Source: Escherichia coli
GTDB lineage: Bacteria; Pseudomonadota; Gammaproteobacteria; Enterobacterales; Enterobacteriaceae
Direction: 5' to 3' (one strand)
Assembly (NCBI RefSeq): GCF_016903815.1
Contig: NZ_CP069973.1
DNA length: 64,000 nucleotides
Position 1 is the first letter of the stretch. Each line of letters opens with the position of its first letter. Positions 1 to 44,191 of the stretch are shown here, piece by piece. Made by a program: the position numbers and the translations under genes. Under the pieces are notes generated by a model, which was not told the DNA's origin, made no database searches, and saw only the letters and a list, made by a program, of their open reading frames with translations.

Positions 1-219
1 GCTGGCGGACACTGTACCGGCAAAATCAATGCCTGGCACCATTGGAAAGTGCCGGACGATAGGCCCGCGGCCCGTAATAGCCAGTGCGTCTTTGTAGTTG
101 ATAGATGAACAGTCGACATTGACCTCCACATCCCCCTGTGGCAGCTCGCTTTCAGCGATTTCAGCAATTTGGGCACTGTGGCGGTCATCCATCTTACTGA
201 TTAATAATGATTTAAACAT
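1..219 (-). CDS. Partial CDS (N-terminal part; continues beyond window start): YhdH/AcuI-like MDR-superfamily NADPH-dependent oxidoreductase
   Basis: Reverse-strand translation from ATG at 217-219 reads MFKSLLISKMDDRHSAQIAEIAESELPQGDVEVNVDCSSINYKDALAITGRGPIVRHFPMVPGIDFAGTV, which aligns with the N-terminus of E. coli YhdH/AcuI (SSLNYKDALAITGKG...PMIPGIDFAGTV). Not the K-12 yhdH locus, so probably island cargo. Confidence 0.6.
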   Translation of the reverse strand, partial: MFKSLLISKMDDRHSAQIAEIAESELPQGDVEVNVDCSSINYKDALAITGRGPIVRHFPMVPGIDFAGTVSAS

Positions 220-872
220 TTTTTTTCTCGTCTTTCTGGTTTGATGTCATTGAGCTATAAAGTAGTCAATAAACAATATTGACCGATCGTCTAATAATCA
301 ACGCTGATATCCCAGTGTTTGTCAGAAAACAAGAATTGCTTTTCTTTTCATCAGGTTAAATCTATCTTTTTTGATTTATATCAAACCAGATTCGGTCTTC
401 AATTATATAGGCATCAATGTTAGCGGTCCTACAAGATACGCAGTCGATGCTTCAGGGCGTACTGATGAAATAAAACAAGTAGGCTGAGATTAGTTGGTCT
501 GCTCATCGCTCACAGCGGACCTTCAGCTTCGTTAGCCAAGCGCTGACATAGTTACCGATGTAGCGTGTTAATCTGTCGGGAGCATAGCCGAAATCACTTA
601 ATCCATTAGACTTCACCTAAAACTGCAAAAATTACCGTCTTTGTCACACTCACCGAGTTTAATCAAACTAACACTGTACATAGTGCGAACAAGAGCCAAC
701 CAGAAAGACTGTTCAGCATCAACAGTGAAGTTTTTCCCCGCCACTTCCCCGCAATTCCTCCGCAGTTTTCCCACTAGAGAGTTCGACACATCCCTTGCAT
801 ACCAACGCTTTGATTCAAATCTCGGTAGTGCATCCAATTAGTAGAATATGTGTTTTTCGATAAATGCTCCGA

Positions 873-1232
873 TCACTTTTTCGTGGATCTCAACTGAGCG
901 TGAGAAGCAGATTGTTTACGAGCCAACCGCTTAATGTGGGTGCGTAGCGTCAGATTATTACGCTCAATGCGTTGGGTGAATATTTTGCCGGTCAGATGCT
1001 TATTCTTCGGCACCACCCGGCCATAGCTGTCCCAGTCATCGCTGGTGAGCATGCCGATGTTGAAGGGTGTAAGCAGTGCCAGTAGCTCCCGGCACGTTTG
1101 ATTGGTTCGGGGACCAAAAGTGTAGGCCAGTACACCGCCTGTTTTGGTGTTGTACGCGTACCAGAGCCAGTGTAGCCGGGCTTTACTGCCAACGTAGCTC
1201 CATTGCTCATCAAGCTCGCAGATAAGCGCCAC
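873..1232 (-). CDS. insB: IS1-family InsB-like transposase segment (probably expressed as InsAB' by -1 frameshift, or N-terminally truncated)
   Basis: 119 aa ORF ...CELDEQWSYVGSKARLHWLWYAYNTKTGGVLAYTFGPRT... matches the IS1 InsB catalytic region (compare [25 protein letters not shown]...). Confidence 0.7.
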   Translation of the reverse strand: MALICELDEQWSYVGSKARLHWLWYAYNTKTGGVLAYTFGPRTNQTCRELLALLTPFNIGMLTSDDWDSYGRVVPKNKHLTGKIFTQRIERNNLTLRTHIKRLARKQSASHAQLRSTKK

Positions 1233-1258
1233 ATCAGCATGGGCAACAGGCGAAGAAG

Positions 1259-1531
1259 TTATTTGCGTTGGCGCGAGTTTTTTAAAGTCCGGATGATGGT
1301 GTTAATACCAATTTTCAGTGTCCTGGCGGTATCGCGAACCCCGGCACCATTAAAGGCCATTTCAGTGATCATCTCTTTCATACCCGGCTTACGTGCTTGA
1401 TAAGTATAAGTGAGCTGAAACACACGGTGGCAGTCACGGCAGCGAAATCTGTCACGGCCTTTAGGGTTCTGACCATGGCGGTAAACCTGAGCTGACTGAC
1501 AACGGGGACAATGAATATTAACGCTGGCCAT
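1259..1531 (-). CDS. insA: IS1-family InsA-like protein (zinc-finger/HTH transposition regulator)
   Basis: 90 aa MASVNIHCPRCQSAQVYRHGQNPKGRDRFRCRDCHRVFQLTYTYQARKPG...; CxxC...CxxC pattern and colinearity with canonical IS1 InsA. Confidence 0.8.
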   Translation of the reverse strand: MASVNIHCPRCQSAQVYRHGQNPKGRDRFRCRDCHRVFQLTYTYQARKPGMKEMITEMAFNGAGVRDTARTLKIGINTIIRTLKNSRQRK

Positions 1532-1783
1532 GAGATAACCTCAAAAGCCCGTATTATACATCAGATTCAACCAATTAGAGGCATCACCCTTTCCTACATT
1601 CGTAGGACTTTGATTACATATAGCAAGGGTTAATTCTTATATACATAGAATAAATTAGGAATATAATGAATTTTATCGTGACGACCTTATTTATAATTAA
1701 TTTATATCGTCAGAGAAATTAGTGTCCACAACATGAAGCCTTACAAAGAGATTCTATGATTTAAAAAAAATAAGAGCCAGCTT

Positions 1784-3253
1784 ATGCATATCGATTCGAC
1801 TGAAAAAAATAATAAACAAAAGTTGGGCTTGCTTGCGCTAACATCCATTGTCGTGAGCTCGATGATCGGCAGCGGCGTTGACGGACTCCCCCAGAATATG
1901 GCGGAGAATTCTGCCGTGGGCCCGGTGGCGATAGCATGGATAGTCTGTGGTATCGGCATGTTTTTCATCTCCAGAACTTTTATCGTGCTGTCAAACATTA
2001 GACCTGATCTCCAGTCAGGAGTTTATATGTATGCCCGGGAAGGGTTCGGCCGATTTACGGCATTTAACGTCGCCTGGGGCTACTGGCTGATGACTATATT
2101 CAGCAACGTCGCCTTTGCCATTATGGTGATGGATACGCTGAATTATTTCTTACCAGGTGATTTCAAGGGAGGGAACAATATTCCTTCCGTTATCGGTGCC
2201 TCTTTGCTGATATGGGGATTCAACTTTTTAGTCCTCTCCGGTACCCGCATTGCCGGGTCGATTAACATCGTCGGCACGCTGGCCAAACTGATCCCGCTGG
2301 TGGCCTTTATTATTATTCTCATGCTGTTTATGAAGTACACCACGTTCGCAGATAACGTCTGGGGGCACAGCGCGAGTAAGGCCAGTCAGGACCTAGGCTC
2401 TATTTTCTCACAGGTAACTTCACCGCTTAGCGTGGCACTCTGGAGCTTCATCGGCGTTGAGGGGGCTGTCGCTCTTTCCGGTCGGGCCAAAAATAAACGC
2501 GACGTGGGTAAAGCCACATTCATTGGCTTCGTTGTATCACTGATTATCTGTCTGCTGGTCTCCATCCTGCCGTTTGGCGTGCTGACTCAACATGAGCTCA
2601 GCGCAATTCCAACCCCATCCACCGCCGGTATTCTGAAGATTGTTGTCGGTGAATGGGGGAAGATTATGATTATCTTGGGGGTGCTGATTTCGGTGCTTAC
2701 CAGCTGGCTGGCGTGGACCATCATCTGCGCCGAACTGCCTATGGTGGCCGCGCAGAACGGCACATTCCCGAAACCGTTCAGCAAAAAAAATGTGAAGGGT
2801 TCGGCCTCGGTTTCGCTTTATATAAGCAGTGCGTTTATGCAAATCGTCGTACTTCTGGTCTACTTTTCTAACGATGCCTGGCTTGCAATGCTGGCTATCT
2901 CTACCCTGACCGTTTTACCTGCGTATTTAATGACCACGGCATACCTGTTTAAACTATGTATTAGCGGCGAGTATGCCAGCTATACCACGAATCACAGCCG
3001 CAGCGCCGCGCTGGTCAGCAGTATTATCGGCTTTGTATTCTGCCTGTTTATGTTCTACGCCAGTGAAATCAAATATCTGGCGATGGTTCCGGTGCTGCTT
3101 ACGCTGGGCGTGCCCCTGTTTATCTGGGCAAGAAAAAAAGACGATCGCGCAGATAAAATATTTACGCTACGCGAACTGGCATTTTTTATTTTACTGCTGG
3201 TCCTCGACATCATTGTTTTTATTCTACTGCATTATAAAACGATACATTTTTAG
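1784..3253 (+). CDS. ArcD/YdgI-type basic amino acid/polyamine antiporter (APC superfamily, APA family), copy 1
   Basis: 489 aa; ATG at 1784 with AAGAG RBS; N-terminal KLGLLALTSIVVSSMIGSGV..LPQNMA motif and GVEGAVALSGRAKNKRDVGKAT motif typical of ArcD/YdgI arginine:ornithine-type exchangers; multiple hydrophobic helices. Confidence 0.85.
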   Translation: MHIDSTEKNNKQKLGLLALTSIVVSSMIGSGVDGLPQNMAENSAVGPVAIAWIVCGIGMFFISRTFIVLSNIRPDLQSGVYMYAREGFGRFTAFNVAWGYWLMTIFSNVAFAIMVMDTLNYFLPGDFKGGNNIPSVIGASLLIWGFNFLVLSGTRIAGSINIVGTLAKLIPLVAFIIILMLFMKYTTFADNVWGHSASKASQDLGSIFSQVTSPLSVALWSFIGVEGAVALSGRAKNKRDVGKATFIGFVVSLIICLLVSILPFGVLTQHELSAIPTPSTAGILKIVVGEWGKIMIILGVLISVLTSWLAWTIICAELPMVAAQNGTFPKPFSKKNVKGSASVSLYISSAFMQIVVLLVYFSNDAWLAMLAISTLTVLPAYLMTTAYLFKLCISGEYASYTTNHSRSAALVSSIIGFVFCLFMFYASEIKYLAMVPVLLTLGVPLFIWARKKDDRADKIFTLRELAFFILLLVLDIIVFILLHYKTIHF

Positions 3254-3357: not shown

Positions 3358-5727
3358 ATGAAATTTAACCACAATCTTTTATTTATTTCCTCACAATATC
3401 TTGATGGCGACAACCCTTCGCAGCAGGTACTGGAAGAGCTTCAAACCGAACTCGCGGAACGCGGTTTTAAAATTCATATCACGCACCAGATCTCTGATGG
3501 ATTAAAAATCATCGAAAAAAGCCCCCAATACAGCGGGATTGGTTTTTACTGGGAGCCAGACAATCCGACCTTTGCAGAAGAGCTACAGCACTTTATCAGC
3601 ATATTCCGCAAAAGAAATGCCACGACGCCGCTGATAATTTTCTCAGAACAGAATATTACCGATCGTATCCCACTCGACGTCTTAAAAGAGGTCAGCGAAT
3701 ATGTTTATCTGTTCTCTGAATCCGCAGCCTTCACTGCCAATCGACTGTACTCCTTAGTCCACCGCTATGCGGATAAGCTTCTTCCTCCCTACTTTAAAAC
3801 CCTTAAGGACTTTACCGAGGACGGTGACTATTACTGGGACTGCCCGGGGCATATGGGGGGAATGGCCTATCTGAAACATCCTGTTGGCATTGAGTTCATT
3901 AACTTCTTTGGCGAAAACATGATGCGCGCTGATATTGGCGTGGCTACCGCGGAGATGGGGGATTATCTGATCCACGCCGGACCGCCTAAAAAATCGGAAG
4001 AAATTGCGGCCCGACTGTTTGGCTCTGATTGGACCTTCTACGGTGTTTCCGGCTCATCGGGGTCGAACCGTATTGTGGCCCAGGCTGCGGTTGGCGCAGA
4101 TGAAATTGCCATTATTGACCGAAATTGCCACAAGTCACTTAATCATGGCCTGACCTTGTCTCAGGCAAGGCCGGTTTACCTGAAACCTACCCGCAACGCG
4201 TGGGGGCTGATTGGGCCTATCCCGACCGGACGCCTGAAGAAGGCCAGTATTGATGCGCTGGTGGCAAACAGCCGACTGGCATCTGGTGCGGTCAGCCAGT
4301 CCCCGTCCTACGCCGTGGTAACCAACTGCACCTATGATGGCTTCTGTTATAACGTGAACGATGTAGTCAGACACCTGGGTGAAAGCGCACCGCGCATCCA
4401 TTTTGATGAAGCATGGTATGCCTATGCGCGTTTCCATCCGCTATACCAGAGTCGCTATGCAATGGACGCGGAGGAAACGCCAAATCGTCCAACCCTATTC
4501 GCCGTACAGTCCACCCATAAAATGCTGCCCTCACTCTCCATGGCCTCAATGATTCATGTGAAGAAAAGCGATCGCGCGCCGCTTAATTTCGATGACTTTA
4601 ACGATGCCTTTATGATGCACGGCACGACCTCACCCTACTACCCGATCATTGCATCAATTGATGTGGCAGTAAGCATGATGGAGGGTGAATCCGGTTATTC
4701 GCTTGTGCAGGAGTCAATTGAAGAAGCGATTGCCTTCCGTAAAGCCGTGGTCAGCGTCAAGCGCCAGCTCCAGGAGCAGGAAGGTGGTGACGCCTGGTTC
4801 TTCGATGTGCTTCAGCCAACCGAAGTGCAGGACAGCGATTCTGGGCAGCGATACAGTTTTGAAGAGGCACCCGTATCGCTGCTGAGCCACAGCGCCGACT
4901 GCTGGTCGCTGCGCTCCGGTGAGCGCTGGCACGGTTTTGCCGATGATGATCTGGTCGAAACCAACAGTATGCTCGATCCAGTAAAAGTGACCCTGACTTG
5001 TCCAGGGATCGGCCCGAAGGGAGAATACCAGAAAAACGGTATTCCGGGATATTTGCTGACCCGTTTTCTCGATGACCGTCGCATTGAAATTGCCCGTACT
5101 GGTGACTACACCGTGCTGATCCTGTTCTCCGTCGGCATCACCAAAGGCAAATGGGGAACTCTGATTGAAAGCCTGCTGGCCTTTAAAAAGCATTACGACA
5201 ATGACGATCTGGCCACAGATGCTATCCCGTCGCTGAAAGCGCATTCTCCACACTACGACACGCTAACCCTCAAGGAGCTATGTCAGATAATGCATGAAAA
5301 AATGGATGAGCTGGAGCTGATGTCGCATATCAACGACGCGGTAAACACCGATCCGGAACCAGTTATGACCCCGGCAGAAGCCTATCAGAAAGTCGTACGC
5401 TACAAAACCGAGCATATCCGGCTGGATGATTTTAGCGGCAGAATTGCCGCCAGCATGCTCGTCCCATATCCCCCAGGCATTCCTGTACTGATGCCGGGCG
5501 AACGGATGCCGCAAGGTAACAAGGGCATTATTGGCTATCTGCGCGCCCTGCAGGAATTCGATAAGCAATTCCCAGGTTTTGAACATGAGATCCAGGGCGT
5601 TAACGTCGATGAAGACGGGGACTTCTGGGTCAGAGCGATTGTGGAAGAAGAACGCGATGGGCAGTCGCTACCCGGCCACATAACCTTTAAACGCCAGGTC
5701 TCTGGTATTAAAAAGGGCCGCCAGTAG
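3358..5727 (+). CDS. PLP-dependent Orn/Lys/Arg decarboxylase, AdiA/CadA/SpeF family (fold-I, with N-terminal wing domain); substrate not assignable from sequence
   Basis: 789 aa; GGAGA RBS before ATG 3358; conserved blocks shared with E. coli AdiA (YWDCPGHMGG, SGSSGSNRIV, DRNCHKSLNHGL, VVTNCTYDGFCYN, HFDEAWYAYARF, STHKML with the PLP-binding Lys, ASIDVAVSMMEG, MLDPVKVTL, KGKWGTL, PYPPGIPVLMPGE, FPGFEHE). Longer than AdiA (755 aa) with a distinct C-terminal tail. Confidence 0.9.
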   Translation: MKFNHNLLFISSQYLDGDNPSQQVLEELQTELAERGFKIHITHQISDGLKIIEKSPQYSGIGFYWEPDNPTFAEELQHFISIFRKRNATTPLIIFSEQNITDRIPLDVLKEVSEYVYLFSESAAFTANRLYSLVHRYADKLLPPYFKTLKDFTEDGDYYWDCPGHMGGMAYLKHPVGIEFINFFGENMMRADIGVATAEMGDYLIHAGPPKKSEEIAARLFGSDWTFYGVSGSSGSNRIVAQAAVGADEIAIIDRNCHKSLNHGLTLSQARPVYLKPTRNAWGLIGPIPTGRLKKASIDALVANSRLASGAVSQSPSYAVVTNCTYDGFCYNVNDVVRHLGESAPRIHFDEAWYAYARFHPLYQSRYAMDAEETPNRPTLFAVQSTHKMLPSLSMASMIHVKKSDRAPLNFDDFNDAFMMHGTTSPYYPIIASIDVAVSMMEGESGYSLVQESIEEAIAFRKAVVSVKRQLQEQEGGDAWFFDVLQPTEVQDSDSGQRYSFEEAPVSLLSHSADCWSLRSGERWHGFADDDLVETNSMLDPVKVTLTCPGIGPKGEYQKNGIPGYLLTRFLDDRRIEIARTGDYTVLILFSVGITKGKWGTLIESLLAFKKHYDNDDLATDAIPSLKAHSPHYDTLTLKELCQIMHEKMDELELMSHINDAVNTDPEPVMTPAEAYQKVVRYKTEHIRLDDFSGRIAASMLVPYPPGIPVLMPGERMPQGNKGIIGYLRALQEFDKQFPGFEHEIQGVNVDEDGDFWVRAIVEEERDGQSLPGHITFKRQVSGIKKGRQ

Positions 5728-5745
5728 GCGGGGGAAAGAACAATA

Positions 5746-5771
5746 CCGTCGGATCGCCTGCAATCCGACGG
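5746..5771 (+). promoter_or_regulatory. Intercistronic stem-loop between the decarboxylase and the downstream antiporter (possible attenuator or mRNA processing/stability element)
   Basis: Inverted repeat CCGTCGGAT-cgcctgca-ATCCGACGG (9-bp stem) in the 74-bp spacer; no strong T-run follows. Confidence 0.4.
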
Positions 5772-5801
5772 CAATATTATAGAATAGCTGAGGGAAACGT
5801 T

Positions 5802-7301
5802 ATGGCAGAGCAATCTTCAGATGTAAAAAATAGTGACAATAGCGCCGGAGGACATAAGCTGGGGCTTATATCCCTCATCGCTATTGTCGTTAGCTCCATG
5901 CTGGGAGGCGGCGTTTTCAGTCTGCCGCAAAACACGGCGGCCTCTTCTGCACTAGGGCCAGTAATCATTGCATGGATTATTGCCGGGATCGGTATTTATT
6001 TTATCGCAAACTCCTTTCGCGTACTATCAGATCTGCGCCCGGACCTTCAGGCTGGAGTGTATATGTATGCCCAGGAAGGTTTTGGTTCCTTTATTGGCTT
6101 TAACGTCGCCTGGGGCTACTGGCTGATGACCGCATTTGGCAACGTTGCCTTTGCGGTAATTTTAATGGATGCTTTTAATCAGTTTATGCCGGGGGTTTTT
6201 ACGGATGGTAATAATCTGAACTCCATTATCTGCGGCTCAGTGCTGATCTGGGGCTATAATTTTCTTGTTCTGTCCGGGACGAAAGTGGCCGGATTTGTTA
6301 ACACCTTGGGAACCATCGCCAAGCTCGTCCCTCTGATCCTATTCGTATTACTGCTGGGTGTGCTGATCGATTATTCGGACCTGTTTAAAAACTTTTGGGG
6401 AGAATCACCCGCGATCCTCAGTGGCAACGGAAATGACGCCGCACCAGTATCGCTGCTGTCTCAGATTCTGGCACCGATGACCGTAACGCTCTGGGCCTTT
6501 ATTGGCGTCGAGGGAGCGGTTGTTCTATCCGGACGTGCCAAAAATAAACAGGACGTAGGGAAAGCCACACTGATCGGCTTTCTGCTGGCGCTAATTATTT
6601 ATATGTTAATGTCCATTCTGCCGTTCGGTGTAATGCCTCAGGCAGAACTAGCGCAGGTCAGTAACCCCTCTACCGCAGGCGTGCTCGCCCACGTTGTCGG
6701 TCAGTGGGGCGACTGGCTGATGAGCGCGGGGCTGATTATTTCTGTTCTGGCCGGCTGGCTTGCCTGGACCATGCTATGCGCTGAAATACCGATGGTAGCA
6801 GGACAGAAAGGCGCTTTCCCGCGCGCGTTTGCCCGAACGAACAGTAAACAGGCGGCCAATGTGTCACTGTGGGTTAGTAGCTTTGTGATGCAGGCGGCCA
6901 TGTTACTTGTTTATTTTTCAAATAATGCTTGGACCACCATGTATAATATCAGTGCGCTGATGGTTGTTCCGGCCTATATTACCACCACGCTGTATCTGAC
7001 CAGTATTTGCAGAAACGGAAAATATGATCAGTATGCAAAAAAAGGCCGCAGGCTGGCTTTGTCCAGCGGTGTTTTAGGCTCGCTATTCTGTCTGTTTATT
7101 CTTTACGCCAGCCAGATTGAGTATGTTGCATTAATTCCTATCCTGTTGACCTGTGGTCTGCCGGTCTTTATCTGGTCAAGAAAAGAAAAAAATGATGGTC
7201 AGCCGATATTTACCAAAAAAGAGCTGATTTATCTGATTATGCTGTTGCTGTGCGATATTATCGTCGTTGCCCTGTTTATTGGTGGATATTTAAAGGTATA
7301 A
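5802..7301 (+). CDS. ArcD/YdgI-type basic amino acid/polyamine antiporter (APA family), copy 2 (paralog of 1784..3253)
   Basis: 499 aa; GAGGGA RBS; same motifs as copy 1 (KLGLISLIAIVVSSMLGGGVFSLPQNTA, GVYMYAQEGFG, FNVAWGYWLMT, GVEGAVVLSGRAKNKQDVGKAT) with long collinear identity. Confidence 0.85.
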   Translation: MAEQSSDVKNSDNSAGGHKLGLISLIAIVVSSMLGGGVFSLPQNTAASSALGPVIIAWIIAGIGIYFIANSFRVLSDLRPDLQAGVYMYAQEGFGSFIGFNVAWGYWLMTAFGNVAFAVILMDAFNQFMPGVFTDGNNLNSIICGSVLIWGYNFLVLSGTKVAGFVNTLGTIAKLVPLILFVLLLGVLIDYSDLFKNFWGESPAILSGNGNDAAPVSLLSQILAPMTVTLWAFIGVEGAVVLSGRAKNKQDVGKATLIGFLLALIIYMLMSILPFGVMPQAELAQVSNPSTAGVLAHVVGQWGDWLMSAGLIISVLAGWLAWTMLCAEIPMVAGQKGAFPRAFARTNSKQAANVSLWVSSFVMQAAMLLVYFSNNAWTTMYNISALMVVPAYITTTLYLTSICRNGKYDQYAKKGRRLALSSGVLGSLFCLFILYASQIEYVALIPILLTCGLPVFIWSRKEKNDGQPIFTKKELIYLIMLLLCDIIVVALFIGGYLKV

Positions 7302-7443
7302 GTCCGAGTTAAATCTTTACTGGGCTAGTAATGCCGCCTTTTAAACAAGAAGGGCGGCAATCTTACTGAAATTAGTATGCTGCAAATCGGTAATGCTGCC
7401 AACTTACTGATTTAGTGTATGATGGTGATTTTAAGGTGCTTGC

Positions 7444-7719
7444 GTGGCTTCCATTTCCATCAGATGTCCTTCCTGCTCCGCTACTGAAGGCGTGGTGCGT
7501 AACGGCAAAAGCACTGCCGGACATCAGCGCTATCTCTGCTCTCACTGCCGTAAAACATGGCAACTGCAGTTCACTTACACCGCTTCTCAACCCGGTACGC
7601 ACCAGAAAATCATTGATATGGCCATGAATGGCGTTGGATGCCGGGCAACTGCCCGCATTATGGGCGTTGGCCTCAACACGATTTTACGTCACTTAAAAAA
7701 CTCAGGCCGCAGTCGGTAA
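7444..7719 (+). CDS. insA: IS1 InsA
   Basis: 91 aa [91 protein letters not shown]. Confidence 0.95.
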
Positions 7720-8141
7720 CCTCGCGCATACAGCCGGGCAGTGACGTCATCGTCTGCGCGGAAATGGGCGAACAGTGGGGCTATGTCGGGGCTAAATCGC
7801 GCCAGCGCTGGCTGTTTTACGCGTATGACAGGCTCCGGAAGACGGTTGTTGCGCACGTATTCGGTGAACGCACGATGGCGACGCTGGGGCGTCTTATGAG
7901 CCTGCTGTCACCCTTTGACGTGGTGATATGGATGACGGATGGCTGGCCGCTGTATGAATCCCGCCTGAAGGGAAAGCTGCACGTAATCAGCAAGCGATAT
8001 ACGCAGCGAATTGAGCGGCATAACCTGAATCTGAGGCAGCACCTGGCACGGCTGGGACGGAAGTCGCTGTCGTTCTCAAAATCGGTGGAGCTGCATGACA
8101 AAGTCATCGGGCATTATCTGAACATAAAACACTATCAATAA
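7638..8141 (+). CDS. insB: IS1 InsB (expressed as InsAB' fusion by frameshift)
   Basis: 167 aa ORF ...[40 protein letters not shown]...[10 protein letters not shown], canonical IS1 InsB. Confidence 0.95.
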
Positions 8142-8156
8142 GTTGGAGTCATTATC

Positions 8157-8949
8157 TAACCGTAGCGTTTATTACGCGCAGGTGACGCGTCCTGTTAATG
8201 TGCAAAGAATTGACTTACGAAGTCGGGTGAGGGCTTTCCATGCTCTCAGTCGTGGCGCAGCCGGTAGCCGTGCAATCAGTCAGATGTTGCGCCAGAGTAG
8301 CGTTGATGCAGGCCGGTGGCTGGCACGACGACTGATGCGGGAATGCGGGCTGACAAGTCGACAGATGGTTAAACATCACTACCGGGTCAACGAAGACAAA
8401 AGTCCGCCATTGCCAAATTTACTGAACCGGCAATTTCACCCCGCCGCACCAGACCGCGTCTGGTGCGGCGACATCAGTTTTATTCGCCTGCATGACAAAT
8501 GGTGTTAGCTCGCGCTCGTTGTTGATTTATATTCACGGCGGATTACCGGTTCAGCCCTCTCATTAACCGCTGATGCTGAGTTGGTGTGTAGGGCTTTGCG
8601 TAATGCACTGGAAACACGATCACGTGATGGCCGTCTGCTGTTTCATTCAGATCAAGGTGTTCAGTATAAAAGCAATAAATACAGAAAGTTACTCTGGCGT
8701 TATGGGGTAATGCAAAGTATGAGTTGCAGAGGGAATGGCCTGGATAATTCGCCGATGGAAAGAGTCTTTCGCAGCCTTAAAAATGAATGGCTTCCGAAAG
8801 GTGGTTATGGTGATTTTATCCATGCGGTACGTGATATAAACCAGTGGATTAATGGTTATTACAACGTTTATCGACCTCACACGAACAACGATGGTTTACC
8901 GCCTTGCTTACATGAAGAAAAGTGGAAACAGGTTATTCCGGTGTCCTGA
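8157..8949 (+). pseudogene. IS3-family transposase OrfB remnant: 5' part (OrfA and start of OrfB) removed by the IS1 insertion, plus an in-frame TAG at 8506-8508
   Basis: Single reading frame translates ...[49 protein letters not shown]...[11 protein letters not shown]...[13 protein letters not shown]...[15 protein letters not shown], collinear with IS3/IS2-type OrfB; the amber codon sits where family members have Tyr (WLYLAVV). 3' end of the element not precisely located (probably within ~40 bp after 8949). Confidence 0.8.
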
Positions 8950-9166
8950 TTTTGTGAACCACTACAATAATCCTTTTTCACAGACTTGTCAGCAGCCAGC
9001 ATTTATGTTCTTTTACCTGCGGGAATTTATCCGTCTGCCTGTCGGGACTACTCTGTCATACAGAAATCAGGTAGGAATAAATTGTAGTGGAAAGTCGATG
9101 TTTACCGGATGACTGATGCGCGCTTGTACACAGACAGTGTGTTTCAGTAATATGGAGAATAATGAA

Positions 9167-9667
9167 ATGAATAACACAGACACATTAGAAAAAATAATCA
9201 GACACCAAAAAAACAAAGACCCCGCATATCCCTTTCGGGAACATTTGTTGATGCAGCTCTGTATTCGCACAAATAAAAGAATGCAGGATAATATATCTGA
9301 ATTTCTGGGGGCGTATGGAATAAATCACTCAGCATATATGGTTCTCACCACATTATTCGCAGCGGAGAACCATTGTCTGTCACCTTCAGAGATAAGCCAG
9401 AAACTTCAGTTTACCAGAACTAATATTACCCGCATTACAGATTTTTTAGAAAAAGCCGGATATGTAAAAAGGACGGATAGCAGGGAGGATCGCCGTGCTA
9501 AAAAAATCAGTCTGACATCTGAAGGTATGTTTTTTATTCAGAGGCTCACTCTTGCACAAAGCATGTATCTGAAAGAAATCTGGGATTATCTGACTCATGA
9601 TGAACAGGAACTGTTTGAAGTCATTAATAAAAAATTACTGGCACATTTTTCTGATGCCAGCTCATAA
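9167..9667 (+). CDS. MarR-family transcriptional regulator, EmrR/MprA-like (possibly a PapX/SfaX-type 17-kDa regulator)
   Basis: ORF 9116..9667; likely start ATG 9167 after GGAGA. Sequence ...YPFREHLLMQLCIRTNKRM...GINHSAYMVLTTLFAAENHCLSPSEISQKLQFTRTNITRITDFLEKAGYVKRTDSREDRRAKKISLTSEG... aligns with EmrR (winged-helix region [28 protein letters not shown]). Surrounded by AT-rich DNA. Confidence 0.8.
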   Translation: MNNTDTLEKIIRHQKNKDPAYPFREHLLMQLCIRTNKRMQDNISEFLGAYGINHSAYMVLTTLFAAENHCLSPSEISQKLQFTRTNITRITDFLEKAGYVKRTDSREDRRAKKISLTSEGMFFIQRLTLAQSMYLKEIWDYLTHDEQELFEVINKKLLAHFSDASS

Positions 9668-10133
9668 AGTGCGAAATATCTGAGGATGCTGGATAGCTTC
9701 AGGCAAGAGAATAATGATTCTTGCAGATGTGTTTTTCCGGATACAAAAACAAAAGTAAAAAATTGCAGCGCCAGGCCACCTTTCAAAGCAGGGAGGCTTG
9801 TACCGCGTCGAAAATTTCAGCCAGTTAATGTAATTGTCTGAACCAGGCACTTCGCCCGGGCAGGAGAAGGAGCGTGGTTGCGGTCATCCTGTATACTGAA
9901 GTCGTTATGAAGGAATAATACAAATAATTGCCCGTTTTCTCTGTACGATAGAGGCAGGTGTGTATGATTGCATCACTATGTTTTTGTGATATAAAAAACT
10001 AAATGGTGAGATATGCATTTTAAAATATAACAAAAATCACCATGAAATAAGAATAATTATCCACGGAGAACATAAACTGCAGACTGTTACAATGCATGCT
10101 GTTCATCTTGACAATGTCGGTAATGACTCCAAC

Positions 10134-10637
10134 TTATTGATAGTGTTTTATGTTCAGATAATGCCCGATGACTTTGTCATGCAGCTCCACCGATTTTGAG
10201 AACGACAGCGACTTCCGTCCCAGCCGTGCCAGGTGCTGCCTCAGATTCAGGTTATGCCGCTCAATTCGCTGCGTATATCGCTTGCTGATTACGTGCAGCT
10301 TTCCCTTCAGGCGGGATTCATACAGCGGCCAGCCATCCGTCATCCATATCACCACGTCAAAGGGTGACAGCAGGCTCATAAGACGCCCCAGCGTCGCCAT
10401 CGTGCGTTCACCGAATACGTGCGCAACAACCGTCTTCCGGAGCCTGTCATACGCGTAAAACAGCCAGCGCTGGCGCGATTTAGCCCCGACATAGCCCCAC
10501 TGTTCGCCCATTTCCGCGCAGACGATGACGTCACTGCCCGGCTGTATGCGCGAGGTTACCGACTGCGGCCTGAGTTTTTTAAGTGACGTAAAATCGTGTT
10601 GAGGCCAACGCCCATAATGCGGGCAGTTGCCCGGCAT
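10134..10637 (-). CDS. insB: IS1 InsB
   Basis: 167 aa, identical in translation to the InsB at 7638..8141. Confidence 0.95.
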
Positions 10638-10831
10638 CCAACGCCATTCATGGCCATATCAATGATTTTCTGGTGCGTACCGGGTTGAGAAGCGGTGTAA
10701 GTGAACTGCAGTTGCCATGTTTTACGGCAGTGAGAGCAGAGATAGCGCTGATGTCCGGCAGTGCTTTTGCCGTTACGCACCACGCCTTCAGTAGCTGAAC
10801 AGGAGGGACAGCTGATAGAAACAGAAGCCAC
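10556..10831 (-). CDS. insA: IS1 InsA
   Basis: 91 aa [37 protein letters not shown]..., canonical InsA. Confidence 0.95.
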
Positions 10832-11360
10832 TGGAGCACCTCAAAAACACCATCATACACTAAATCAGTAAGTTGGCAGCATCACCCAATCTGCTGACAG
10901 ACGAAGATAATGAACCCGTTATGGTTTTTAACGGAGAGAGGAATGTACTGGCAGACAGTCTGAAACCACAGCCTCTGATTCTTCCGGTCAAGGGAAAATA
11001 AGCGTAATGTTCATCACCAGATTATGTACGATGAGTTTTCCACTGTTTATAGCAATTATCTTGCTAATAACCAGACAGGAGTAACCAGACCAACCGAAAA
11101 CACCGGGAAGGTGATTACCCGCTGGCAGAGGAAATCCGGTTTTTTTTGATGTCAGCCATAACGTGTTTGACAATAAAGCATCATGAAAGGGTGTTAATGA
11201 GTCCATGGGATAATTCATAAAAATAATTTACTGTGTTATCCTTTTCAAAAGAAATATTCAGAAGATAACCCCTGGCTGACAACCAGGGGAAGGGGGCATT
11301 AACAGTGTTATTATTGGTGAATAAATTATTACTTGTGTGCAGGATACACTAATGCAATAT

Positions 11361-12659: not shown

Positions 12660-13925
12660 TCACCTTTTCAGTGGATTGTTAACTTTTGCATATTCAAACG
12701 GACTGATACACTCCTCCCTGTTTGCATCCAGAAAATCTGCCCACCATTGCAGCATAAGCCGACGTTCTTCCAGATGTTCTGCTTTATGAATATACGCGGC
12801 ACGTACTCCGTTGCGCTCCTGATGACTCATCTGACGTTCAACCGCATCTCTTGACCATAAGCCGGATTCAATCAATGCACTGCACGCCATCGCCCGGAAT
12901 CCATGGCCACAGACTTCCTTGGTTGTGTCATACCCCATCACCCTCAGGGCTTTATTTACAGTATTTTCACTGATTGGTTTACGCGGGTCATGTGCACCCG
13001 TAAATATCAGACCATTTTCACCTGCCCATGTCTGAAGTTCTGTCAGTATGGCTACAGCCTGTTTACTGAGTGGCACAAGATGTGGTGTCCGCATCTTGGA
13101 GCCCCGGTGTGAGAATTTTACGCCAGGCAGAGGTTCGCGTTCGGCTGGAATAGTCCACATGGCATTGTCAATATCAATTTCAGACCAGCGGGCATATCTG
13201 AGTTCACTGGAACGAATAAAAACCAGTAAATTCAGCATAACGGCAAGCCGGGTGACAGGCTGGCCTTTATAACCGTCAATACGCGACAGAAGTTCAGGCA
13301 GGCGTGAAAGATTCAGAGCGGGGCGATGCTGGCGTTTTACCGTGGTCAATGCACCAGCCATATCCAGAGCCGGGTTATATCTGATGATGCCAGACTGTAC
13401 GGCGTAACGCATTACAGCAGATATTCTTTGCTGCAGACGACTAGCGATTTCATAAATTTGTTTTGCTTCTGCAGCACGAACAGGGATAAGCAGGTCCGGG
13501 GTATTGAGTGTTGTGATATCCCGGTTGCCGATAAAGGGGAAAACGTGTGTCTCGAGGCTTTTGAGTACTTTATCGCTGTGTGATTGTGCCCATTGTTTAT
13601 TACTGGCATGCCAGCGTCGTGCAATATGTTCAAAAGAGAGCTGTAAATCAGGGACTACTTTTTTAACTCTTTTCTGTTCGCAAGGGTCAATCCCCTCTGA
13701 AATCAGTTTTCGGGCCTCATCCCGTTTTGTACGAGCTTCGGAGAGAGAAACTTCTGGATACACACCAAGTGCCAGAGTCTTCTCCTTACCCAGAATACGA
13801 TAACGGAGACGCCAGTAACGGGAACCATTAGGATGAACCAGCAGGAACATGCCGGCCCCGTCAGTGAGTTTATAAGCCTTGTCAGTGGGCTTTGCAGCCC
13901 GGATTTTTGCGTCAGTCAGTGCCAT
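12660..13925 (-). CDS. P4-type (phage/island) tyrosine integrase, tRNA-associated
   Basis: 421 aa MALTDAKIRAAKPTDKAYKLTDGAGMFLLVHPNGSRYWRLRYR..GKEKTLALGVYPEVSLSEARTKRDEARKLI...; C-terminal region with HGFRAMACSALIESG...R and catalytic-type motifs; adjacent to the 3' end of tRNA-Phe. Confidence 0.93.
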   Translation of the reverse strand: MALTDAKIRAAKPTDKAYKLTDGAGMFLLVHPNGSRYWRLRYRILGKEKTLALGVYPEVSLSEARTKRDEARKLISEGIDPCEQKRVKKVVPDLQLSFEHIARRWHASNKQWAQSHSDKVLKSLETHVFPFIGNRDITTLNTPDLLIPVRAAEAKQIYEIASRLQQRISAVMRYAVQSGIIRYNPALDMAGALTTVKRQHRPALNLSRLPELLSRIDGYKGQPVTRLAVMLNLLVFIRSSELRYARWSEIDIDNAMWTIPAEREPLPGVKFSHRGSKMRTPHLVPLSKQAVAILTELQTWAGENGLIFTGAHDPRKPISENTVNKALRVMGYDTTKEVCGHGFRAMACSALIESGLWSRDAVERQMSHQERNGVRAAYIHKAEHLEERRLMLQWWADFLDANREECISPFEYAKVNNPLKR

Positions 13926-14122: not shown

Positions 14123-14198
14123 TGGTGCCCGGACTCGGAATCGAACCAAGGACACGGGGATTTTCAATCCCCTGCTCTACCGACTGAGCTATCCGGGC
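14123..14198 (-). tRNA. pheU: tRNA-Phe(GAA)
   Basis: Reverse complement reads GCCCGGATAGCTCAGTCGGTAGAGCAGGGGATTGAAAATCCCCGTGTCCTTGGTTCGATTCCGAGTCCGGGCACCA (76 nt, CCA end, GAA anticodon). Confidence 0.97.

Positions 14199-43771: not shown

Positions 43772-43847
<76 letters not shown>

Positions 43848-44004: not shown

Positions 44005-44080
<76 letters not shown>

Positions 44081-44115: not shown

Positions 44116-44191
<76 letters not shown>

Follow-up and report, generated by a model that had tools for sequence, protein, structure and literature searches.

The core acrylyl-CoA reductase of Escherichia coli, AcuI (YhdH), belongs to the MDR012 subgroup (Todd et al. 2012, PMC3338564). Its gene adjoins csrD; of 5426 complete E. 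coli genomes, 5425 carry it. In Rhodobacter sphaeroides, acuI lies beside a TetR-family gene, acuR, within an acuR-acuI-dddL operon. The acuR promoter of this operon has been proven by mutation, and comprises the elements TTGATT, TATTAT and TAATAGAC-n6-GTCTATTA (Sullivan et al. 2011, PMC3017554).

A mobile relative of the core gene, here termed acuI', lies tail-to-tail (convergent) with acuR on Enterobacteriaceae plasmids and in four E. coli genomes. As in R. sphaeroides, a TetR-family AcuR gene stands beside the reductase gene; in contrast to the Rhodobacter operon, the enterobacterial genes converge, dddL is absent, and the predicted operator and promoter precede acuI' rather than acuR (no AcuR-type operator was seen upstream of acuR in E. 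coli KFu015, which carries an intact acuI' homolog). Both KFu015 proteins score above the cut-offs of their family models: the reductase reaches 477.8 bits against the NF051456 equivalog (cut-off 440) and 410.7 against the YhdH subfamily model TIGR02823 (cut-off 297), and its neighbor 266.6 against the AcuR equivalog (cut-off 247). The acuR-acuI' pair is kept on plasmids and in other species; within E. coli, 1198 genomes carry parts of the module, whereas just 4 of the 5426 complete ones retain it whole.

Here we describe the left edge of a 64,000-nucleotide stretch of E. coli DNA (the window), which we consider very probably to hold the wreckage of such a horizontally acquired acrylate-detoxification module, lodged in a pheV genomic island. 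The features discussed below are collected in Table 1.

Table 1. Features at the left edge of the window, with strand and the evidence for each.
Feature	Coordinates	Strand	Basis
acuI' stub, codons 1-73 (acrylyl-CoA reductase family)	1..219	-	Translation, YhdH identity, NCBIfam match
Segment A, native non-coding acuI' upstream region, 36% GC	220..504	-	Co-linear with plasmid copies
Putative leader, about 47 nt, with Shine-Dalgarno-like GACGAG (232-227)	220..272	-	Upstream alignment
Predicted acuI' core promoter and AcuR-type operator	273..301	-	Conservation, match to R. sphaeroides acuR promoter
Perfect FNR-type box TTGAT-N4-ATCAA (TTGATTTATATCAA)	371..384		Motif match and conservation
Joint of segments A and B; 8 nt (ATCGCTCA) common to both parental sequences	505..512		Four-way alignment, flank comparison
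Segment B, non-coding pheV integrative-element backbone, 46% GC	506..823		Context, annotation, substitutions
Weak 11-bp tandem repeat (TTCCCCGCAA), 2.9 copies	734..764	+	Tandem Repeats Finder score 37
Divergent IS1-family element, 765 bp, transposase frameshifted	824..1588	-	Ends, ORFs, RefSeq

The reverse complement of positions 1-219 translates without a stop (MFKSLLISKMDDRHSAQIAEIAESELPQGDVEVNVDCSSINYKDALAITGRGPIVRHFPMVPGIDFAGTVSAS), giving the N-terminal 73 residues of a protein of AcuI/YhdH type, as an earlier reading of the sequence without database searches (the sequence-only reading) had recognized. Aligned with E. coli YhdH/AcuI, this fragment shows 59% identity over residues 2-72 (E=9e-29); against the NCBIfam AcuI model it covers model positions 1-72 (E=3.4e-28, 98.4 bits). 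At the nucleotide level it shares ~69-74% identity with core yhdH. The intact form aligns end to end with the core protein, retains the GASGGVG nucleotide-binding motif, and is 50% identical to YhdH over its full length, placing the two in the same enzyme family. KFu015 is 97% identical to the window in nucleotide sequence over positions 1-823, a segment carried by 402 E. coli genomes. The copy in the window shows neither near-identity to core yhdH nor synteny with csrD: it lies in the IS-rich pheV island, and its nearest relatives are plasmid genes of Enterobacter and allied genera. The sequence-only reading had proposed an island-borne paralog, to be abandoned in favor of a rearrangement if the fragment proved identical to chromosomal yhdH; the comparison found no such identity, and these results support assignment of the copy as an island-borne paralog distinct from the core gene.

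The direct relatives of window positions 1-512 are the plasmid and chromosomal acuR-acuI' modules (among them Enterobacter pE76_001, Leclercia pLEC-1cb1 and a Plesiomonas plasmid), which share 74-93% nucleotide identity with it, an identical 25-nt operator block, and equal spacing of that block to an FNR-type box and to the start codon. These relatives are intact, but the window copy lacks both codons 116-327 and acuR; where intact, the pair encodes a 327-aa reductase and a 218-aa AcuR, and acuI' has acuR as its neighbor, which the window copy does not. The gene had been described as partial at the window edge, and partial it is, but the edge of the window is not the whole cause: in window-identical genomes acuI' continues a further 126 bp to the left and ends at nucleotide 345 of 984, the break falling after codon 115, where the inverted repeat of an IS3-family element begins. 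In strains 7/2 and 219, the 12 kb and 20 kb to the left of the window, respectively, contain no annotated acuR. The Rossmann NADPH-binding domain (GASGGVG, residues about 145-151) is absent from the 115-codon genomic copy, and the 73-aa window fragment, whose match is confined to model positions 1-72, falls short of the NF051456 cut-off of 440 bits. Judged from its reading frame, this copy is dead: a truncated stub without the NADPH-binding domain, it therefore cannot act as a reductase, and in this it departs from the functional core AcuI/YhdH. The RefSeq annotation of hundreds of genomes calls it a truncated pseudogene.

Upstream of the stub, the alignment of segment A with Enterobacter plasmid pE76_001 runs as far as position 512 at 92.8% identity, and those with other Enterobacteriaceae plasmids as far as positions 386-479 at 74-81%; because single-nucleotide indels separate the lineages, a coding function for this segment is excluded. 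Within it, positions 301-273 read TTGATT-ATTAGACGATCGGTCAA-TATTGT, in which we predict a -35 element (TTGATT, 301-296) and a -10 element (TATTGT, 278-273; TATTAT in most relatives) separated by 17 nt. The spacer region carries an imperfect palindrome, TATTGACCGATCGTCTAATA (277-296), and the 25 nt at 275-299 are invariant in all 12 homologous loci, forming the longest invariant run of the upstream alignment. A 27-mer from the predicted promoter/operator is unique within the window, and a 21-mer from the operator block recurs in six further species, always ~55 nt upstream of the acuI' start codon. The start codon itself lies 73-75 nt after the start of the operator core and is preceded by a conserved Shine-Dalgarno-like ACGAG(G), of which ACGAG (231-227) is invariant across lineages.

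By sequence resemblance, this arrangement corresponds to that of the R. sphaeroides acuR promoter: the hexamers TTGATT and TATTAT are shared, and an AT-rich inverted repeat with GAC/GTC cores lies between and over them. The acuI' palindrome differs in being imperfect, with a center of 5 nt rather than 6 nt. Whereas the Rhodobacter transcript is leaderless, beginning at the AUG of the first gene, the predicted acuI' start would yield a leader with a Shine-Dalgarno sequence; both the transcription start and the leader are placed here by sequence features. The -35 hexamer is unconserved in 4 of the 12 loci (CCGATT, GCAATT, CCAATT, ATGATT), given which the true promoter may lie elsewhere than TTGATT-17-TATTGT, one possible alternative being TTGTGT-16-GATAGT upstream of the operator. 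A different palindrome, GTCAATA-N5-TATTGAC (266-284), was rejected as the operator, its promoter-distal arm being unconserved in the E. hormaechei and Plesiomonas copies. By analogy with Rhodobacter, and given the invariance of the 275-299 block, we infer that in intact copies AcuR would bind the imperfect palindrome filling the spacer of the TTGATT-17-TATTAT promoter, and that acrylate would release it, as shown for Rhodobacter.

A further difference from R. sphaeroides is the FNR-type box in the acuI' upstream region. The 64 kb contain no other match (0.10 would be expected), and the box is perfect in 10 of the 12 loci, with a single mismatch in the other two; its 4-nt spacer varies, and its center lies upstream of the operator core at a constant distance of 83-85 nt in all 12. 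This conservation suggests that FNR may bind the box in intact copies, adding anaerobic control. FNR activates canonically from about -41.5, or from class I positions. The box is centered at about -112 relative to the preferred predicted promoter, and at about -79 relative to the alternative; a position near -112 is non-canonical for FNR activation, and counts against the proposed scheme.

Similarity to the plasmid modules gives way to segment B at the joint. Segment B is present in 435 genomes, with no match in plasmid and phage collections. Its left edge falls at 505-507 in three unrelated contexts, and the IS1-family element truncates it on the right. Its relatives sit between variable cargo and a P4-type integrase; in intact contexts 630-780 bp separate it from a downstream integrase that has an arm-DNA-binding domain, and it directly adjoins a cargo slot occupied by HNH, PD-(D/E)XK and similar genes. 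Rfam searches of window positions 1-1800 and of an intact segment B context (L015, 6300-7600) gave chance-level hits only (E about 0.7-0.9), and predicted folding of 505-823 was no better than that of shuffled sequences on either strand (z = +0.32 and +0.37). In CFSAN064036, the last nine residues of an IS66 TnpA (a truncated HTH_Tnp_1 protein) are read from segment B; the intact ISEc23 tnpA, tried as an explanation of that junction, belongs to a different IS66-family member and was uninformative.

The integrase context, the identical left edge and the tandem 11-bp repeats (at which one relative carries a 10-residue insertion) raise the prospect that segment B is functional, as the outer attachment or regulatory region of a P4-type-integrase element, with the TTCCCCGC repeats serving as arm-type sites of the integrase and the 505-507 edge as a recombination boundary. 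We regard this as unlikely, though it fares best of the alternatives to an inert backbone fragment: the repeat is short and low-scoring, its motif (TTCCCCGCMA) is not clustered elsewhere in the window (11 matches vs. 9.6 expected), and neither a second copy of the edge nor a tRNA-Phe 3'-end repeat that might serve as an att site was present in the DNA examined. Even were such a role real, segment B is truncated in the window and apart from its cognate integrase, and would thus be a relic here.

Less probable still is the reading that 506-823 preserves what is left of a small minus-strand gene, encoding 94-107 aa in its complete form, which lost its 5' end to the IS1-family element. The longest ORFs in 220-823 are of 74 aa (613-837, minus) and 66 aa (641-841, plus), and both run into that element; in contigs without it, the minus-strand frame over 616-822 extends to 94-107 aa, and public collections hold ‘hypothetical protein’ entries 78-94% identical to it. 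All of these matches, however, are to near-identical enterobacterial sequences, and the open frame may merely reflect recent common descent. Against two more distant relatives, substitutions in segment B are spread evenly over the codon positions (10/10/10 and 13/11/11), and indels of 1-2 nt break the frame in both. It is at the 11-bp DNA repeat that the relatives differ in length; a Pfam search of four candidate ORFs and peptides gave no match for those of segment B; and in about 435 genomes RefSeq leaves 513-823 without any annotated feature. Neither codon-position bias, frame conservation nor a family match was found in 506-823, and a small gene there, its frame being open in several close relatives, keeps only a slim chance.

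The sequence-only reading had correctly described 220-823 as holding only short, weak ORFs, and no credible gene was found there; it had also suggested decayed gene remnants, none of which is recognizable in what is a composite of the acuI' control region and non-coding backbone. Its other suggestion, a divergent promoter, would have driven a plus-strand gene now broken by IS1; we consider this very improbable. The region is AT-rich and contains one sigma-70-like plus-strand match (270-298), but shuffled sequences lead one to expect 1.7, and this hit merely overlaps the palindromic operator. In plasmids and other species, DNA beyond the conserved upstream region varies from locus to locus (umuDC, IS1, hypothetical genes), so that there is no conserved divergent partner; the frame of the plus-strand ORF at 641-841 is unconserved in relatives, and the DNA to the right of the IS1-family element belongs to an antiporter gene. 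That the fragment is the core yhdH/acuI gene itself, displaced by a chromosomal rearrangement with no second copy, has nothing beyond family membership in its favor and can be considered refuted, given 59% amino acid and ~70% nucleotide identity to a core gene that stands beside csrD and is present in nearly every genome, and closest kin on Enterobacter and allied plasmids.

The element that bounds segment B on the right, labeled ‘IS1 family transposase, frameshifted’ in RefSeq, has inverted repeats (GGTAGTGC... / ...GCATCACC) and InsA/InsB-like ORFs. It shows no 9-bp target duplication, its flanks (TCAAATCTC and CTTTCCTAC) being different, which indicates that it lies at a rearrangement joint rather than at a simple insertion; the DNA on its right is native to the region upstream of the antiporter. 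An IS1 composite transposon was also considered and rejected, since no DNA similarity was detected between the element and either IS1A copy (7389-8154, 10121-10886), and it lacks a target duplication. The first ~14 kb of the window are island DNA, ending at an integrase and tRNA-Phe pheV (14123-14198), and contain IS1, IS3 and IS66 remnants and pseudogenes. This is the same class of content as in other mosaic, IS-ridden E. coli pheV islands, with nothing unusual about it, and the junction of acuI' stub, segment B and IS1 is nearly identical in about 400 sequenced genomes.

We propose that the module – acuR, encoding a TetR-type acrylate-responsive repressor, convergent with acuI' – would have circulated on Enterobacteriaceae plasmids before its upstream flank was joined, at the 8-nt overlap, to the backbone of a pheV element. 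The IS1-family element would then have cut this backbone, linking it to an antiporter-decarboxylase-antiporter module, and an IS3-family element would later have cut acuI' after codon 115, with loss of the remainder of the gene and of acuR; this order is suggested by a handful of genomes. Left in the window, on this reconstruction, would be a stub of 73 codons (115 in the genome), an orphaned control region and an inert scrap of backbone.

The window edge is an instance of ordinary genomic-island decay. Its correct annotation is a pseudogene, an orphan promoter/operator, a recombination joint, a fragment of island backbone and an IS1-family boundary; the consequences for this DNA are slight, because the stub encodes no reductase, acuR has been lost, and the pseudogene is already marked as such in RefSeq. 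A broader reading can be offered only tentatively: that acuI' modules are mobile units gated by acrylate and anoxia, and that segment B marks a cargo-exchange boundary of pheV elements. If so, the operator and FNR box predict that acuI' would be expressed only where acrylate is present and oxygen absent, as in gut-like conditions, and the fixed 505-507 edge beside the cargo slot would define that boundary. The literature consulted yielded no account of either the AcuR-operator/FNR arrangement or the segment B edge, both of which are relics in the window. The conserved AcuR-type operator and FNR-type box upstream of mobile acuI' in Enterobacteriaceae may be of use to those who study acrylate toxicity or the architecture of genomic islands, as may the finding that E. 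coli genomes nearly always carry the acuR-acuI' module in degraded form.

Read on the minus strand, window positions 1-219 comprise 73 codons without a stop (start ATG at 219-217); the translation fits the NCBIfam AcuI model over its positions 1-72 and is 59% identical to residues 2-72 of E. coli YhdH/AcuI, in keeping with the partial minus-strand reductase gene recognized in the sequence-only reading. Also upheld is the view that this gene, here acuI', is an island-borne paralog and not a rearranged core yhdH: core acuI (yhdH), which adjoins csrD, occurs in 5425 of 5426 genomes, so that both copies are carried wherever the window segment is found, and nucleotide identity between the two is only ~69-74%, over short stretches. 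E. coli KFu015 has an intact 984-bp version (97.2% identity to the window over 1-823), whose protein is 50% identical to core YhdH and scores 477.8 bits against the AcuI equivalog cut-off of 440. When strain 7/2 (NZ_CP023820.1) is aligned with KFu015, acuI' identity holds up to nt 345, where it gives way abruptly to TGAAGTGGCACACTGAATTTGGCCACC... and then to an ORF that begins MKKRNFSAEFKRESAQLVV; here an IS3-family element, presumably IS911-like, sets in with its terminal repeat and first gene. The element is annotated intact in strain 219. RefSeq lists the 345-bp remainder as a pseudogene without a C-terminus. As the break (codon 115) precedes the GASGGVG nucleotide-binding motif (residues 145-151 of intact AcuI'), the stub cannot be a reductase.

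Many complete E. coli chromosomes, among them that of strain 7/2 (identical over the first 12.8 kb of the window), match positions 1-823 at 100% identity, and the segment is present in 402 of 5426 complete genomes, almost always as a single chromosomal copy. In annotated relatives the region is an island attached to tRNA-Phe (pheV). Strain 219 shows, from left to right, the IS3-family element, the truncated dehydrogenase gene, ~600 bp unannotated, a frameshifted IS1-family transposase, an antiporter-decarboxylase-antiporter module, IS1, an IS3 remnant, a MarR gene, IS1, two hypothetical genes, integrase, tRNA-Phe, then yqgA and speC. Given the position of pheV in the window and an integrase gene expected just inside it (roughly 12660-13925, from co-linear strains 7/2 and 219), the first ~14 kb are pheV-island DNA. 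The 5' part of tRNA-Phe also matches three 20-nt stretches at 95% (43778-43797, 44011-44030, 44122-44141), which suggests that other tRNA genes are clustered around 43.7-44.2 kb.

Coordinates of features in the window and of one related remnant
Feature	Position	Strand	Remark
acuI' stub	1-219	minus	
Predicted acuI' promoter with putative AcuR operator	273-301		
FNR-type box	371-384		TTGATTTATATCAA
Joint	505-512		ATCGCTCA
Segment B	506-823		
IS1-family element	824-1588		IS1-type ends, InsA/InsB-like frames; transposase frameshifted (RefSeq)
Basic amino acid/polyamine antiporter	1784-3253		
Orn/Lys/Arg decarboxylase	3358-5727		
Second antiporter	5802-7301		
tRNA-Phe (pheV)	14123-14198	minus	100% identical to KMi029 copy
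O104:H4-type acuR-acuI' remnant	L014 (relative's DNA) 7001-8014		

Positions 220-504 are the native upstream region of acuI', correcting the suggestion of a divergent promoter within 220-823. Plasmid pE76_001 is 92.8% identical to the window through position 512, and other plasmids are 74-81% identical through 386-479; single-nucleotide indels between lineages show that there is no conserved coding frame. Across a five-lineage alignment, 47% of the non-coding columns are invariant, and the longest standout run spans 25 nt (299 to 275, GATTATTAGACGATCGGTCAATATT). A 21-mer from this block, scanned by exact match in one genome per species, recovered six more species; in all six the block lies upstream of acuI', with 73-75 nt from the beginning of its operator core to the start codon, and acuR, the TetR-type repressor gene, is convergent wherever the fetched DNA was long enough. 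The block comprises, in gene orientation, TTGATT, a 17-nt spacer containing TAGAC-GATCG-GTC, and TATTGT (TATTAT in most relatives). In Rhodobacter, the promoter hexamers are TTGATT and TATTAT, and the AcuR operator is TAATAGAC-n6-GTCTATTA, mutations in which lead to constitutive expression (PMC3017554). By analogy with these hexamers and this operator, we read the block as a predicted acuI' promoter with a putative AcuR operator in its spacer. The -35 hexamer differs in 4 of 12 loci, and the palindrome is imperfect (77% complementarity), with a centre of 5 nt, not 6 nt as in Rhodobacter; unlike the leaderless Rhodobacter transcript, that of acuI' is predicted to begin with a leader that includes a Shine-Dalgarno sequence, ACGAG(G). 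KFu015, the one E. coli genome with an intact acuR-acuI' module to be examined, has a G-to-T change within the otherwise invariant operator block (TTATACG vs TTAGACG; ~8294 in its fetched DNA, L002, corresponding to window 292), which could weaken AcuR repression there.

Farther upstream lies a perfect TTGAT-N4-ATCAA, the sole match in the 64-kb window against 0.10 expected. Its half-sites are perfect in 10 of 12 loci and have one mismatch in the other two, its four spacer bases vary freely, and its centre stays 83-85 nt away from the operator core in all 12. Such a pattern is the footprint that a real FNR site would be expected to leave; the box would sit at about -112 with the preferred promoter or about -79 with a possible alternative one, and since both positions are non-canonical we infer its function only provisionally. 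In the window, the predicted promoter, operator and box are orphaned, because the gene is broken and acuR absent.

Elsewhere the module is mobile and found intact. A TetR-family gene that passes the NCBIfam AcuR equivalog cut-off (266.6 vs 247) stands tail-to-tail with acuI' in KFu015, on Enterobacter, Leclercia, Citrobacter, Klebsiella and Plesiomonas plasmids, as well as on chromosomes of several further species. Genes for a BCCT transporter and a DUF2254 protein are frequent neighbours, joined on some plasmids by an alkene reductase gene and frmRAB (electrophile/aldehyde detoxification). In E. coli the module has very seldom stayed whole: of 5426 complete genomes, 1198 have pieces of it and only 4 have it intact (at least 80% of acuR plus acuI'). 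A common remnant, as in O104:H4, consists of BCCT-DUF2254-acuR and the last ~300 nt of acuI' beside an IS66 element; only the first 345 nt of acuI' are kept in the window form. The two remnants are complementary, the middle 340 nt being absent from both.

The window tracks pE76_001 up to ...GGTCTGCTCATCGCTCA and belongs to a different sequence family from ATCGCTCACAGCGGACC... on, the 8 nt at 505-512 being shared by both parental sequences and marking their joint. Segment B, which follows, is unrelated to acuI'. In each of three unrelated contexts its left edge falls at 505-507: beside the acuI' upstream region (window, KFu015), a truncated IS66-family tnpA (CFSAN064036, WP7-S17-ESBL-04) and an HNH-domain gene (contigs of other assemblies). 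It had no match among the plasmids or phages searched, and in the 435 E. coli genomes that carry it no feature is annotated across it.

The longest ORFs in 220-823 are indeed short (74 and 66 aa), and both enter the adjoining IS1-family element. Segment B is probably not the decayed gene that had been suspected there: a minus-strand ORF at 616-822 reaches 94-107 aa in close relatives and is called a hypothetical protein by some pipelines, but in comparisons with the two less similar relatives (83% and 77% identity) substitutions fall evenly by codon position (10/10/10 and 13/11/11), the frame is broken by 1-2-nt indels, Pfam gives no match, and a 10-residue insertion in one relative falls at a weak 11-bp tandem repeat (TTCCCCGCAA, 734-764). 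The segment's repeat motif is not enriched elsewhere in the window, Rfam returned no family for segment B, and its folding energy is unremarkable.

Where the IS1-family element does not cut it, segment B runs on rightwards, upstream of a P4-type integrase (arm-DNA-binding domain) and 630-780 bp away from it; a DUF927 protein comes next. The opposite side of segment B, up to pheV, holds variable cargo (HNH_2, PD-(D/E)XK nuclease or hypothetical genes). We conclude that segment B belongs to the non-coding backbone of a pheV integrative element and is an inert, truncated relic in the window; in intact elements it could conceivably mark a boundary of the cargo or provide arm sites for the integrase. 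No second copy of its edge and no tRNA-derived repeat were found in the window and relatives. Fetched elements of this kind (L015-L018, ~5170-10998; L005, 3142-8976) run from pheV through cargo, segment-B homolog and ~630-780 bp to the integrase, and on to a 203-aa protein, the DUF927 protein and a second integrase-like gene; cargo between tRNA and integrase is an unusual placement. In the river isolate E. coli 1008S13 (L006, 706-8567), defence genes and fragments (a dptF remnant; type II Zorya zorA2, partial, zorB2 and zorE; a PD-(D/E)XK nuclease) adjoin the homolog, interleaved with IS1 copies.

The IS1-family element is so divergent that blastn showed no DNA similarity to either IS1A-type copy (7389-8154, 10121-10886). 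No 9-bp target duplication is seen in its flanks, TCAAATCTC and CTTTCCTAC, and segment B does not continue on its right, where the DNA is the upstream region proper to the antiporter gene; a simple insertion is thus rejected, and the element marks a rearrangement joint. The three-gene module between it and the first IS1A-type copy looks like an accessory acid-resistance/decarboxylase-antiporter system, and accompanies segment B in all genomes examined (7/2, 219, KFu015, CFSAN064036, WP7-S17-ESBL-04).

From these comparisons we infer a three-step history. A plasmid-type acuR-acuI' module would have been joined at 505-512 to pheV-element backbone, which an IS1-family element would then have linked with the antiporter-decarboxylase-antiporter module; KFu015, in which intact acuI' is kept with segment B and that module, may preserve this stage. 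An IS3-family element would finally have truncated acuI' at codon 115, with loss of the distal part and acuR, giving the arrangement common to ~400 genomes.

Positions 1-823 are thus a case of ordinary island decay, with a pseudogene already annotated by RefSeq. What is mildly new, though present in the window only as relics, is the sharp edge of segment B and the conserved architecture of predicted AcuR-operator and FNR-box sites in mobile acuI' genes, in which the box, if functional, would predict anaerobic control of acuI'.
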